Source: a virus (taxonomy: Duplodnaviria; Caudoviricetes). Taken from it: a DNA stretch of 64,000 bases. A program made the position numbers and the translations under genes. Of the stretch, positions 59,362 through 64,000 are shown one piece after another. The stretch is from positions 50,119 through 114,118 of the IMG/VR virus record IMGVR_UViG_2509276065_000002; one strand, 5' to 3'. The notes beneath the pieces were generated by a model. It was not told where the DNA came from and ran no database searches. It saw only the letters and a program-made list of their open reading frames with translations. How positions within the stretch are numbered: the first letter of the stretch is position 1; each line of letters opens with the position of its first letter.

Positions 59362-59598
59362 TCATGCGACGTCTTCCTGTTCATTTCGCTCAGCTTCCCA
59401 ACGATCCATAAGTACACGCATGGAACCGGGCAAAATTTTTTCGAGCTTGAACAGGTTTTCGCCGCTGGGAAGCGCGTTTCCCCATTCCCAGGCGAAATAC
59501 GTGGCTGGGTTGACCCCGAGCTTCTTAGCGATCCTGTCGCCACTGAGCTTCTTTCCACGGTCATCCACCTGGGCCTCGCGAAGTTCGCGCAACGTCAT
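59362..59598 (-). CDS. Cro-like XRE HTH regulator
   Basis: LRELRE...IAKKLGVNPATYFAWEWGNALPSGENL; divergent from the repressor. Confidence 0.85.
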   Translation of the reverse strand: MTLRELREAQVDDRGKKLSGDRIAKKLGVNPATYFAWEWGNALPSGENLFKLEKILPGSMRVLMDRWEAERNEQEDVA

Positions 59599-59614
59599 GT
59601 CCACCTCCATCACA

Positions 59615-59644
59615 ATTATATATGCCTGCAAACATATAAGTCAA
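59615..59644 (-). promoter_or_regulatory. lytic (cro) promoter with embedded operator-like palindrome
   Basis: TTGACT-N18-TATAAT; TATATG-N8-CATATA at 59619-59638. Confidence 0.8.
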
Positions 59645-59765
59645 CGCATGATTAGAAGCCGTGTTGCATGTCTGCACCTGTTGTGAGGGGCCTTTCTATG
59701 GGTCTACGCTTATAAGGTGACGCATACGGGAACGTGCGTAAAAGTCAACGCGTATAGGGGTGCAT

Positions 59766-60452
59766 ATGGTCATGTCCTATCCCACTGCACCGACTTCCCG
59801 CTGGCCAGAGGCCCCCGTGCCTAAAAAAGCGAAGGACAAGATTCCTCGCACCGAGCTCGAACGCATCCGGTTGGCGCTCGGTGACGACTTCACCCAGCAG
59901 CGCATCGCGGAACGCATCAGTGAAATCATCGGTGAGGAGATCACCCAGCCGGTCGTCTCTGCCTGGGAACGCATGACCGTCAAAGACTGGCGCAAAGTCG
60001 ACCGTGACCGGCTGCGGGTCTACGCGCAAGTGCTTGGAATCACCACCCGACGGTTCGAAGAACTCATCGGTTTCAAGCCCGGCGAGTTGTTCATCGACAA
60101 CCTAGTCGCTCCGGAATACATCGAAGAACAGTTACGGCGCGTGCACGAACACCGGCGAGTCCAGCACATCGAACTCGACCGACCCGTATATGGGGAATTC
60201 CCGATTCGCGAGTACCCAGCGCCCTACAAGGTCACGCTCACCGTCGACCTCACTCATGACAAGCACGTCCGTTCGGACCCGAGCTGGATCCTGATGGAAC
60301 ACGGCGGGATGCTCTACATCTTTACGTCCACCCACATCCCACGCGAAGCACTCAGGGATTTTCGTTACGTGGGCGTCGTTGTGCGTGTGGACTTCTCAGT
60401 TGGCCCAGCCGCGCCTGCAGAACCGCGTACTCGGGAAGGTCACGAGCAATGA
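59766..60452 (+). CDS. CI-like repressor (XRE HTH, atypical C-terminal domain)
   Basis: FTQQRIAERI...ITQPVVSAWER HTH; divergent from cro; start uncertain. Confidence 0.8.
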   Translation: MVMSYPTAPTSRWPEAPVPKKAKDKIPRTELERIRLALGDDFTQQRIAERISEIIGEEITQPVVSAWERMTVKDWRKVDRDRLRVYAQVLGITTRRFEELIGFKPGELFIDNLVAPEYIEEQLRRVHEHRRVQHIELDRPVYGEFPIREYPAPYKVTLTVDLTHDKHVRSDPSWILMEHGGMLYIFTSTHIPREALRDFRYVGVVVRVDFSVGPAAPAEPRTREGHEQ

Positions 60453-60579
60453 TGGTAAAGGAATAGCCCTCCCCCACCGAACGCAGATCAGCACGCAAGC
60501 GTAAGAGTTCCTCCAGTTCCTCCAGGCTCACCCACCTGATGAGCAGTCGCTCTTCGGAATTCGCCTCTTGGCTGCTCAC
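60352..60579 (-). CDS. small ORF (75 aa) antisense to the repressor 3' end
   Basis: GGAG 8 nt before the GTG; overlaps the repressor by about 100 nt. Confidence 0.35.
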   Translation of the reverse strand: MSSQEANSEERLLIRWVSLEELEELLRLRADLRSVGEGYSFTIIARDLPEYAVLQARLGQLRSPHAQRRPRNENP

Positions 60580-60728
60580 GCAACAACTCCATTTCCCTAC
60601 AACAAGAACGGAGTGTTACAGCTCCCACCACGTGGAGCGACCGCGACGCGTAGGTGCTGTGCCTGGATACCCATACCGAAAGCATACAGGCGCCTGAGGG
60701 CGCCCGCATGACAATCCCAGACAGCTTT

Positions 60729-60881
60729 TCAGCGCAACGGTTTCCAACTTTGCTGCATCGTCAGCGAGGAATAGCAATCCCCTCCGCACGGAGGAATCGC
60801 TGCAGCAGGAGCAGCAGCAGCAGCGATCGTGAAGGCGGCAATGACGAGCCTGACAAACCGTGACAACAGATTTTTCAACAT
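60729..60881 (-). CDS. secreted signalling pre-peptide candidate (50 aa, not in ORF track)
   Basis: MLKNLLSRFVRLVIAAFTIAAAAAPAAA|IPPCGGDCYSSLTMQQSWKPLR; leaderless TAGGCT-N6-ATG. Confidence 0.75.
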   Translation of the reverse strand: MLKNLLSRFVRLVIAAFTIAAAAAPAAAIPPCGGDCYSSLTMQQSWKPLR

Positions 60882-60943
60882 ACCGCCAGCCTAAAACGTC
60901 ACGTGACCAAATGCCACCAAAAACCTGTCACGGTTTGTCAGGC
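60848..60943. repeat. perfect 18-bp inverted repeat flanking the peptide-gene promoter
   Basis: GCCTGACAAACCGTGACA (60848-60865) and TGTCACGGTTTGTCAGGC (60926-60943); GTCACGTGAC palindrome at 60898-60907. Confidence 0.9.
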
Positions 60944-60951
60944 GTCTCGCC

Positions 60952-62436
60952 TTATTGATTGGTCGCCACACGCAGCGCACCTTTCAGCTGAACGCGTACA
61001 TCGTCGGAAAGCATCTCCAGCACACCTTCGTACGCGTTGTTCCAGCTGTGAATCTCATCCACTGCGCCGTAATCACGCGCAGCGCGGGCCAGACGCAACA
61101 AACTACGCGCAACCAACCCCATGTTGACCGGATGGCCGAAGCCAATGTTGGACTGCTGGTCCGTGAACCGTCTGAATTCGGTGGTCGTGAATCCCTCAAG
61201 CTCCGCCAGCTCCGGAGCGAGGTAGCGCAACACCAAAATCCGCCCGACCCGGCCGGGCATCTCGAAGCGGATCCGTCCCATCGCCACCTGCTTACCCACC
61301 AGAAGAGGCGTCGACGCCACGAGCGCCGAGACATCCGGGTGAGCATTCGGCGCGAGCCCGGCCAGGACCAGGTACTCAGGCGCAATCCGATGCATCAACC
61401 GCAACACAAAATGCGTCCGCGGCATCGCCTCCAGGGCCCCGCGCAGCACGCCCGGCAATGCCAGCGGATCACGGCAGGGCGCGCCATGCATTAAGGCGCC
61501 CAGCAGGGCGAACGCCCACAAGGCGCGTTGATCGGGCGCCCTGGGAACCTGCCCCTCCAGCATTCGCGCACCCACCGCCGCCATGCCCGGCCGGCGCACG
61601 TACGCCAGCGCCTGCACCAACCGTGCGTAGGTCGCTTCGGGCTCACCGGTGATCTCACCGAGGGTGATGTCCTCGTCATGCATCAGCAGACCCACGATGC
61701 CGCGCGCGATTTCACCTGCGCCTCCAGCCTCCCCTTCACGAGGAACTTCCCCGGTGTGCAGCAGCAATGCGTTCAGCAGCTCCCGCTGCTGCTCATGATA
61801 AGTCGCCCCACGTTGGAGGATCTCCATGGCATGCGCGTAGTCTCCCGAAAGCATCAATCCTTCAGCGAGTACCGCCTCGCCGAACGCCCGACGCCGCGGA
61901 CTGATCGAGTCACGCGCCAGAACCAGGCGCAACCGGTCCGGGTTCGCTTGACCGACCAGGTTGCTGACCCGTTCCAGCTCCAGGCTCAAGATGTCGTCCT
62001 TGTGCTGCATGCCGAGTTGCTGTGCGAACGCCAGCGAAATGCGCAGGTACGTCAGACCGGCCTGAGGGTCGCCGGATTGCGTGTACGCCATGGACAAGCC
62101 GTGGTAGGCGTGGCAGGACCCCTCCAGGTCTACCCTGCGCGATCCGCCTGGCGTGAAGCCGAGCCGGATCGCCTGCTCATGCAAATTCAGTTGCGCCAGC
62201 ATCATCAGCCGCCAGCCGCTCGCCAGGTTCCCCGGGACGTCCTCCAGGGTCGAGAGCGATGCAGCGAGATCACCTTGCGCTCCGAGGCACATCGCGTAAC
62301 GCGCTCGACCCAGTGGATCTTCACGTGAGATGAGCGTGCCCTGGAGTTCACGGGCGCGGCCGCTGCCGAGAAGGGCATCAAACGAAACAGGATCATTCAA
62401 AGCGAGTTCGGATTTGCTGAGGCGCTCTTGCTCCAC
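60952..62436 (-). CDS. TPR-like alpha-helical protein, candidate peptide receptor/regulator
   Basis: TPR-like segments AYHGLSMAYTQSGDPQAGLTYLRISLAFAQQLG and VLAEGLMLSGDYAHAMEILQR; GGAG RBS. Confidence 0.7.
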   Translation of the reverse strand: MEQERLSKSELALNDPVSFDALLGSGRARELQGTLISREDPLGRARYAMCLGAQGDLAASLSTLEDVPGNLASGWRLMMLAQLNLHEQAIRLGFTPGGSRRVDLEGSCHAYHGLSMAYTQSGDPQAGLTYLRISLAFAQQLGMQHKDDILSLELERVSNLVGQANPDRLRLVLARDSISPRRRAFGEAVLAEGLMLSGDYAHAMEILQRGATYHEQQRELLNALLLHTGEVPREGEAGGAGEIARGIVGLLMHDEDITLGEITGEPEATYARLVQALAYVRRPGMAAVGARMLEGQVPRAPDQRALWAFALLGALMHGAPCRDPLALPGVLRGALEAMPRTHFVLRLMHRIAPEYLVLAGLAPNAHPDVSALVASTPLLVGKQVAMGRIRFEMPGRVGRILVLRYLAPELAELEGFTTTEFRRFTDQQSNIGFGHPVNMGLVARSLLRLARAARDYGAVDEIHSWNNAYEGVLEMLSDDVRVQLKGALRVATNQ

Positions 62437-62785: not shown

Positions 62786-64000
62786 ATGAGAAAAAGTGCG
62801 AACGGTGAAGGCACCATCTATAAACGCAAGGACGGCCGCTACGAAGCTCGGATCACCGTGGGCCGGACCGAGCAGGGGCACCCGCGGCGTATCAGCAAGA
62901 TCAGCCGTAAGCGCAAAGACGTCAGCGACTGGCTGTCCGAGCAGCTGGCGAAACGCAACGCGGGCGACCTCACCGAACCCAGCCGCGTGACTTTTGCCGG
63001 GTGGGTCGAGCATTACCATGCGAGCCTCACCGTTCGGCCAAACACCATGGACGACTACCACAAAGCGCTGGCGCCGGCCATTGAAACGCTGGGCCACGTG
63101 AAGCTGCGCGAACTGACCCCGGCCCGGCTGCAGGCCGCGCTGAACGAGTGGACGAAGAAGCGCACGGCGTACCAGAACCGCAAGACCGTGAAGCGCCTGC
63201 GGGCGACCCTCGCCGAGGCGGAACGGTTGGAGTTGATCGTCCGAAATCCCGCGCGCACCCTCCGCCTTCCGAAGACCGAAGCGCAGCAGATTCTGGTGTG
63301 GTGGGCGGAGGAAGCGCAGCAGGTGCTGGCGTACGCACGGGCGAACGATCACCGCCTCTTCCCTTTTCTGCACGTCAACCTCGTGACCGGCCTGAGGCGT
63401 GAGGAAATGCTCGGTTTGCGCTGGCAGGATGTGGATTTCGAGCATCATGAATTGCACGTCCGGCAGACCATCACCTTCATCGCTGGGAAGGCGGACATCG
63501 GCGAACCGAAAACCCCGAAGTCCCGCCGGACCGTGGACCTCGATGAGGACACCATCAACGTGTTGCGCACCTGGCAATCCCGCCAGCAGCTCGAGCGCCA
63601 GCTGGCGGGGGACCGATGGCAGCACACCGACCTGGTGTTCGCCACACCAGTCGGGAAAGCCTGGGCGGAAACCTACCTCGCCAAAGTATTCCGGTCGGTG
63701 ATGGAGGCGGCCGGCGTACCCCGCATCCGGCTGTATGACCTGCGGCACTGTTACGCCTCGATCGCGTACGAGGCAGGGGTGCCGCTGAAGCTGATCAGCG
63801 ACCGGATGGGACACGAGAACATCGCCTTTACCCTCAAGACGTACGTGCATTCGAGCAAGCGGATGCGCAAGGCGACCGCCTGGTCCGCGTCGCGGTTGTT
63901 CGGCAGTGCGGTGGATCGGGTGATGGCAGCCGAGGGCGGTGAGGGAAACGTTGCCGTCATGTTGCCGTCAAAGGGCAAAAAAAGACAGGACGCCAGCTGA
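62786..64000 (+). CDS. int: phage tyrosine integrase
   Basis: NGEGTIYKRKDGRYEA arm domain; TGLRREE, KT, YDLRH and RMGHENIAFTLKTYVH catalytic motifs. Confidence 0.96.
   Translation: MRKSANGEGTIYKRKDGRYEARITVGRTEQGHPRRISKISRKRKDVSDWLSEQLAKRNAGDLTEPSRVTFAGWVEHYHASLTVRPNTMDDYHKALAPAIETLGHVKLRELTPARLQAALNEWTKKRTAYQNRKTVKRLRATLAEAERLELIVRNPARTLRLPKTEAQQILVWWAEEAQQVLAYARANDHRLFPFLHVNLVTGLRREEMLGLRWQDVDFEHHELHVRQTITFIAGKADIGEPKTPKSRRTVDLDEDTINVLRTWQSRQQLERQLAGDRWQHTDLVFATPVGKAWAETYLAKVFRSVMEAAGVPRIRLYDLRHCYASIAYEAGVPLKLISDRMGHENIAFTLKTYVHSSKRMRKATAWSASRLFGSAVDRVMAAEGGEGNVAVMLPSKGKKRQDAS

Follow-up and report, generated by a model that had tools for sequence, protein, structure and literature searches.

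The peptide gene under study lies in a stretch of 64,000 nucleotides, hereafter the window. The window is a prophage, as shown by genes for a tyrosine integrase (62786..64000, plus strand; identified by a domain match and running past the window end), for cI-like and cro-like proteins and, elsewhere in the window, for a large terminase, a head protease and a DnaB-type helicase; a DNA methyltransferase is encoded there as well. Homologues of the candidate peptide receptor (see below) are found on Deinococcus plasmids, which identifies Deinococcus as the host lineage. Read along the minus strand, the gene for a 494-aa TPR-type protein (60952..62436) is followed by the pre-peptide gene (60729..60881) and then by a gene of 75 codons with a GGAG ribosome-binding site (60352..60579), in the position of aimX. 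The peptide ORF thus sits between the integrase and the cI/cro-like switch of this Deinococcus prophage. The switch comprises a convergent cI-like gene of 230 aa (59760..60452, plus strand) and a divergent cro-like gene of the HTH_3 type (59362..59631, minus strand; domain match); an HTH_17 excisionase-like (Xis-like) gene also flanks the module. The window copy of the cI-like gene has no Pfam match; its positional counterpart, encoding a XRE-like protein of about 200 aa, is present in 16 of 20 loci. In other loci the gene order is receptor, peptide and small ORF, then the convergent XRE-like gene and the cro-like gene.

The pre-peptide gene (60729..60881, minus strand) starts with ATG and has 50 codons followed by a TGA stop. 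An in-frame TAG is found four codons 5′ of the ATG, which is therefore the earliest possible start of the ORF. The gap between the gene for the 494-aa TPR protein and the ORF, which lies downstream on the same strand, is of 70 nt. Immediately before the start, the coding strand reads TAGGCT (60893-60888), GGCGGT (60887-60882) and ATG (60881-60879); the TAGGCT −10 box of a predicted leaderless promoter (60888..60893, minus strand), which the original prediction had placed 6 nt ahead of the ATG, is exactly there. Translation led by a Shine-Dalgarno sequence was considered and rejected, the GGCGG being a mere 1 nt from the ATG. A palindrome, GTCACGTGAC (60898..60907), can be read in the promoter spacer.

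To place the gene in a wider context, 24 loci were compared, namely the window and 23 others with a homologue of the TPR protein. In 17 of the 24 (window included), TAnnnT occupies exactly positions −12 to −7 relative to the start codon, against 1.35% of background small ORFs, so that the leaderless reading holds. In Deinococcus, a TANNNT element adjoining the ORF is the way, established by experiment, in which leaderless mRNAs arise (PMC12340547, PMC4007540), and the geometry at the peptide loci agrees with the leaderless promoters published for this genus (PMC12340547, PMC4007540). Seven loci lack the box, and in five of them the peptide start overlaps the stop codon of the receptor gene, an arrangement that suggests translational coupling in place of a leaderless start. 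Such overlaps (ATGA or GTGA) were noted at loci L019, L026, L028, L029, L033 and L035, where TAnnnT is mostly missing. The family thus seems to use two modes of expression, an own leaderless promoter or translational coupling. For the window, the claim of a leaderless pre-peptide gene is supported, as a separately promoted gene paired with the TPR protein encoded upstream, by both the promoter geometry (17/24) and synteny. That the gene is “hidden”, as had also been claimed, finds a parallel in two Deinococcus plasmids, whose (incomplete) gene tables lack the homologous peptide genes and list the receptor as a “hypothetical protein”.

The N-terminal 28 residues of the product (60798..60881, minus strand) form a predicted Sec signal peptide, with three basic residues in the first 11 positions (K3, R8 and R11), a 13-residue hydrophobic core (residues 12–24) and a c-region that reads P-A-A-A. 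Cleavage after Ala28, predicted by the −3/−1 rule alone, would leave a product of 22 aa beginning with IPPCGGDC. As originally described, a Cys-x3-Cys motif (Cys32 and Cys36) is located near the start of the predicted mature part: a single residue, Ile29, separates the predicted cleavage site from Pro-Pro-Cys, and the Cys motif sits three residues past the predicted cut. The segment P-P-C-G-G-D-C (residues 30–36; 60774..60794, minus strand) is, by family comparison, the counterpart of a P-C-x-x-C core found in the other members (see below). It is followed by a C-terminal tail of 14 aa (residues 37–50; 60732..60773, minus strand) that is present at this locus only, as other members have 0–4 residues after the second Cys. 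A lipoprotein was also considered and rejected: the residues ahead of the Cys, I-P-P, do not make a lipobox, and the cysteines of the other family members are far from the signal peptide. At the DNA level, the P-P-C-G-G codons (60779-60796, minus strand) form a CCTCC/GGAGG terminator-like hairpin exactly on the motif, which is probably a by-product of the codons.

The 494-aa partner, our candidate receptor, gave no match to Pfam, PHROG, NCBIfam or PADLOC, and its assignment to the TPR type comes from an AlphaFold2 model, a profile match and structure searches. The model, built on homologues, is nearly all helical with a pLDDT of 88, and a search with a profile built from 80 members of the family gives consensus TPR proteins at an E of 2e-11. 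The N-terminus is hydrophilic and has no signal peptide. With VIA-align, the best match is domain III of MalT (Z of 16.5 over 301 residues), followed among peptide sensors by peptide-bound NprR (13.7), SPbeta AimR (13.6), PlcR-PapR (12.8), RapI (12.2) and ComR (11.0). Many generic TPR proteins also reach a Z of 10–13 against the receptor, and values of 12–16 are attainable by unrelated helical repeats through their arrangement, so that we take these scores to mean “TPR sensor-like”, which falls short of proving an RRNPP ancestry. No RRNPP chain was found among the PDB profile hits up to an E of 10, and Foldseek against the PDB returned generic TPR matches only, at an E of 1.6e-3 or worse.

No HTH or other known output domain was detected in the receptor. 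Its N-terminus consists of three short helices (pLDDT 53–78) with no match to an HTH model, and longer relatives with N-terminal extensions carry no DNA-binding Pfam domain. Residues 355–494 (window 60955-61374), with a conserved beta-hairpin and an L-P-G-R motif, were also modelled separately, with a pLDDT of 95.7; Foldseek against the PDB found nothing for this segment, and the highest VIA-align Z was 4.8, to AfsR and EmbR, too weak for a DNA-binding domain to be called there. Language-model features of residues 372–494 gave weak leads to ComR_TPR (0.86) and Rgg_C (0.82). The window receptor is on a long branch of the family and retains every family-conserved residue. The family has no conserved Cys or His that would indicate thiol or metal chemistry at the binding site; any disulfide in the peptide would therefore more probably act outside the cell, in stability or uptake, than in the chemistry of the binding site.

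By profile search, homologues of the receptor were found in 18 of 124 other Deinococcaceae genomes, and 240 further genomes from the rest of the phylum gave just two weak partial matches. Among 1.84 billion representative proteins there are just 111 relatives, to which the window receptor is at most 34% identical locally and 32% over the full length; about 90 further homologues from this library lie outside the peptide comparison. Many of the family loci are on contigs or plasmids of 50–190 kb (the L038–L057 flanks; NZ_CP097156.1, NZ_CP092193.1) that have no integrase nearby and carry genes for a ParB-like protein (800–1000 aa), SSB and a DNA methylase, which suggests that these loci belong to phage-plasmids and not to integrated prophages. 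One plasmid has two identical copies of the module.

In all 23 non-window loci the receptor gene is directly followed by a co-oriented small ORF with a basic and hydrophobic N-terminus of the Sec type, which either overlaps the receptor stop codon or lies no more than about 280 nt from it. Conservation of the frame in relatives had been set beforehand as a refuting test, and the frame is present in 23/23 other loci. The Cys pair singled out by the original prediction is also kept in 23/23, and is the one invariant motif of the family, so that the refuting outcome, loss of frame or cysteines in relatives, did not arise. In these peptides, however, it takes the form of a Cys-x-x-Cys located 0–4 residues from the C-terminus in 23/23; 18 of the 23 peptides end with the second Cys and the other five extend 1–4 residues beyond it, and a Pro stands right before the first Cys in 21. 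Among 2518 background small ORFs, drawn from the flanks of related loci and from the window, only 16 combine a signal-like N-terminus with a C-terminal CxxC, 15 of them being the very peptides found in synteny with the receptor, so that the joint background rate is of about 1 in 2500 small ORFs. The window does contain many spurious ORFs of similar size, which would agree with a chance ORF in GC-rich intergenic DNA; syntenic conservation in 23/23 loci, the promoter geometry and the combination of signal and Cys motif effectively refute this explanation, to which we give almost no credence. Thus, the ORF at 60729-60881 is almost certainly a gene.

Comparison of related loci locates the part of the peptide that appears to be under selection. 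Between L016 and L020, identity is 52% for the receptors and 31% for the spacers, yet none of the last 10 residues differs, their codons showing 6 synonymous changes and 0 non-synonymous ones. Between L015 and L016, the receptors are 77% identical and one position differs between the cysteines, the spacers being different in sequence as well as in length. Further related pairs of loci also share near-identical C-terminal cores although their spacers are unrelated. These comparisons show that selection acts on the C-terminal core alone, and a constant core behind diverged spacers is what a mature signal made of the last 7–11 residues would lead one to expect. The Cys pair would then be the constant part of the signal, and the residues between and before the cysteines would set its specificity.

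Against this background the window peptide stands apart. It is the sole one of the 24 with an x3 spacing between the cysteines, and the sole one with a tail longer than 4 aa (14 aa) and with the motif directly after the signal peptide; the family feature, Pro-Cys-x-x-Cys within 4 residues of the C-terminus, is missing, and Pro-Cys and the second Cys are kept. The description of a Cys-x3-Cys at the mature N-terminus is therefore right for the window and not for the family, whose type is a C-terminal Pro-Cys-x-x-Cys after a variable spacer. Likewise, of the two active pieces that had been proposed, an N-terminal IPPCGGDC and a C-terminal fragment, homology to the family core favors the former and not the latter: IPPCGGDC should be the active piece of the window peptide.

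The divergence could also mean decay, an insertion of 3 nt and the loss of a stop codon having turned a P-C-x-x-C-stop into a non-working ligand that is still expressed. The unique spacing and tail would be so explained, the codon after the second Cys (TAT) is one base from a stop, and the receptor is on a long branch, no other being more than 32% identical to it. Decay, however, needs two independent events, and leaves the promoter box, the start codon, the signal peptide, the Pro-Cys context and the family-conserved receptor residues all intact; extensions of 1–4 aa elsewhere in the family indicate that the C-terminus is not strictly fixed, and extra operator-like sites around the window peptide gene (see below) suggest active regulation. 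A frameshift that would bring back P-C-x-x-C-stop was also considered and discarded, as no alternative frame gives the canonical ending. Taken together, the intact receptor residues, promoter box, start codon, signal peptide and Pro-Cys favor a functional variant, and we regard decay as unlikely. No close relative of the window receptor was found in genomes, viral sequences, metagenome contigs or a phage collection, and thus none that could show the Cys-x3-Cys variant to be maintained. A Pro-Cys…Cys core that survives a change in both spacing and position argues that the cysteines, and not the exact C-terminal context, are essential.

The DNA around the peptide gene carries its own set of repeats. 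The perfect 18-bp inverted repeat noticed at the first reading of the sequence is confirmed, and each of its arms contains TGTC-N6-TGTCA. One arm (operator-like site 1; 60926..60943, plus strand) is 45–62 nt upstream of the peptide start and the other (site 2; 60848..60865, minus strand) is inside codons 6–11 of the peptide gene; a third TGTC-N6-TGTCA (site 3; 60709..60723, minus strand) starts 5 nt after the peptide stop codon. The window of 64 kb has these three copies and no other, where 0.56 would be expected, and the three fall within 235 nt around the peptide gene. We consider the three sites as candidate operators. As a feature of the family, the 18-bp inverted repeat was rejected, this locus alone among the family loci having it. 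In an RNA reading through from the receptor gene, the two arms are predicted to fold into a hairpin of −57 kcal/mol (z of −7.5) that buries the peptide AUG; a transcript that begins at this AUG is without the 5′ arm. The window sites resemble tandem TGTnACGC repeats that, at other loci of the family, come immediately after the peptide stop. More generally, tandem 8-mers with a period of 10–12 nt, most often 11, occur downstream of the peptide stop at 13 of the 24 loci (TGTCACGC and TGTTACGC, each present twice, are two examples), against a mean of 2.0 and a maximum of 6 in shuffled sequences; relative to unshuffled 130-nt windows elsewhere in the same loci, 17% of which have such a tandem as compared to 54% here, the enrichment is more modest.

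Downstream of site 3, by 22 nt, a TATGCT (60681..60686, minus strand; direct repeat D3, like the peptide promoter) is followed after 6 nt by an ATG at 60674, a second start of the leaderless type. This TATGCT is probably the promoter of the 75-codon gene, and a start at 60674 would give an upstream ORF of 25 codons leading into that gene (region 60597-60686). A GC-rich palindrome read earlier as a terminator falls in the spacer of this putative output promoter (60597-60686). In most loci, a third small gene of about 65–110 codons follows the peptide gene in the same orientation. It can be seen across loci L012 to L036 (e.g., L026:1018-1218 and L016:2322-2567), often overlapping the 3′-end of the convergent XRE-like gene of about 200 aa. 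The third-gene proteins of other loci align as one loose family, to which the window 75-codon ORF has a weak similarity (hhalign E of 0.015, probability of 3%).

The reading that we favor, with a probability of about 0.6, is that the ORF is an arbitrium/RRNPP-like pro-peptide gene with IPPCGGDC as its working core, and that it belongs to a three-gene peptide-sensing module, formed by a TPR receptor, a secreted peptide and a small output gene, in the lysis-lysogeny control region of a Deinococcus prophage. The gene, its conservation, the promoter geometry, the synteny and the TPR fold are observed features of the module; export, processing, ring formation, uptake, binding and output are the steps that we infer from them. 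Transcription of the peptide gene would proceed from its own TAGGCT promoter and give a leaderless mRNA, and the peptide would be exported by Sec and cut after Ala28, so that in the window variant signal peptidase would set the N-terminus of the core. The released product would carry the family core, here IPPCGGDC, the 14-aa tail being removed by trimming or else tolerated. The two thiols would most likely close, once outside the cell, a small disulfide ring that shields the core from exopeptidases. The core would build up there, enter through one of the host's many oligopeptide transporters and bind the cytoplasmic TPR protein, with a consequent change in the expression of the 75-codon gene, whose orientation is convergent to that of the cI-like repressor gene. 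Any disulfide would be reduced in the cytoplasm, and the role of the ring may therefore be limited to the outside of the cell. With 18 genes for SBP_bac_5 (OppA-type) proteins, one VKOR homologue and two DSBA-family genes in the host, both uptake of the peptide and extracytoplasmic disulfide formation are plausible; the DsbB and Thioredoxin_4 models gave no match in the host genome, where the VKOR and DSBA models did. In line with an earlier remark that no modifying enzyme is encoded nearby, no such gene is conserved among the shared neighbours, two clusters of which have no known domain. Several points count against the favored reading. The window peptide departs from its family in what the family keeps best, the C-x-x-C spacing and the C-terminal position, and the receptor has neither a detectable output domain nor a sequence-level link to any RRNPP family; its Z-scores, attainable by helical repeats in general, and its lack of conserved Cys or His count against it too.

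The conserved cysteines bring a different function to mind. CxxC is a classic redox and metal motif, and the induction of Deinococcus phages is tied to oxidative and DNA damage. Several members of the family read CPxC, like the active sites of DsbA and glutaredoxin. The peptide might thus be a redox or metal reporter, an exported Cys pair that samples the envelope and whose state is read by the TPR protein, in which case prophage decisions would be tied to stress and not to cell number. In close relatives, however, the positions between and ahead of the cysteines vary in a pherotype-like manner while the receptors diverge, which fits ligand specificity, and the receptor has no conserved Cys or His; we hold this explanation to be quite improbable as a replacement for the signal, although the two are not mutually exclusive. 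A small Cys-pair peptide of the Sec-exported type on a mobile element could also be a secreted antimicrobial or exclusion peptide, bacteriocin-like or acting on the envelope, with the TPR protein as a regulator or immunity factor. We find this very hard to reconcile with a conserved part of 5–10 residues after a low-complexity spacer, too short for the known disulfide bacteriocins, with the lack of a transporter or immunity-type membrane gene conserved nearby, and with the location of the module, which is always the lysogeny switch.

Under the signal reading, the gene seems to specify a virus communication signal not yet described, of a type known so far only from Bacillus-type bacteria. Both RRNPP/arbitrium-type signalling and arbitrium decisions by phages have been described only for Bacillota, with linear and unmodified peptides (PMC10075063, PMC12700828). 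Literature searches on Deinococcus in connection with arbitrium, RRNPP or peptide quorum sensing in prophages returned nothing relevant, the large RRNPP surveys cover Bacillota only and mention no cysteine-containing signals, and no paper describing the Deinococcus P-C-x-x-C pro-peptide family was found. Should the reading be right, virus-to-virus communication extends to another phylum with a different cell envelope, by means of a signal whose invariant feature is a cysteine pair. The window adds the most divergent member of the family. Lysogeny control in Deinococcus is little studied, and the module offers a direct experimental handle on it in the form of a defined core of 8 residues, three putative operators and a candidate for the output gene. 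A bolder, tentative proposal, whose parts we put forward jointly and with rather less than even confidence, is that these modules of Deinococcus phages and plasmids may be the first arbitrium-like systems outside Bacillota; that their signal might be chemically new for this class, a disulfide-closed or redox-switchable Cys-pair mini-ring; that ring size and the intervening residues might set the pherotype, the Cys-x3-Cys of the window being a ring-size variant with an N-terminus cut by signal peptidase alone; and that the phage might in this way combine the density of lysogens with the oxidative state of the surroundings.

How the module relates to known systems differs from one to the next. 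The sensor domain III of MalT, a SUPR/TPR-like domain, is the best structural match of the receptor; MalT, however, is a STAND ATPase with a LuxR-type DNA-binding domain and binds maltotriose, and none of these domains is present in the receptor. With the thiolactone rings of the Agr autoinducing peptides the module may share a small, ring-forming and Cys-dependent peptide signal, but Agr needs cyclisation by AgrB and a membrane histidine kinase, for which there are no genes here, and the ring would be a simple disulfide. The RRNPP systems (Rap-Phr, NprR-NprX, PlcR-PapR, Rgg-SHP and ComR-XIP) have the same layout of a receptor gene paired with an adjacent pro-peptide gene and the same TPR fold (VIA-align Z of 11–14 to NprR, PlcR, RapI and ComR), and a receptor without an HTH recalls the Rap proteins. 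In contrast, the window receptor matches no RRNPP Pfam model or PDB sequence and lies outside Bacillota, and the peptides of its family have two conserved cysteines, whereas the known RRNPP signals are linear and unmodified; with no sequence match to any RRNPP family, the module is an analogue and not an RRNPP member.

The closest comparison is with the arbitrium system (AimR-AimP-AimX) of SPbeta/phi3T-like Bacillus phages. The window receptor has no match to the AimR family and no N-terminal HTH, and the host phylum is Deinococcota where that of arbitrium is Bacillota. The core is P-C-x-x(x)-C with an invariant Cys pair, unlike the linear xxxxG[GA] C-terminal hexapeptide of AimP; moreover, the peptide gene here is leaderless with its own promoter, and the downstream gene is convergent with the repressor gene. 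What the two have in common is the plan: a TPR-type intracellular protein, a co-oriented gene for a Sec-type pro-peptide whose conserved part, across the family, is the C-terminal end of the peptide, and a small downstream gene, set beside the integrase and the lysogeny switch of a temperate phage. Operator-like repeats between the peptide gene and the downstream gene are also shared, and the location of site 3 corresponds to that of the AimR operator between aimP and aimX.
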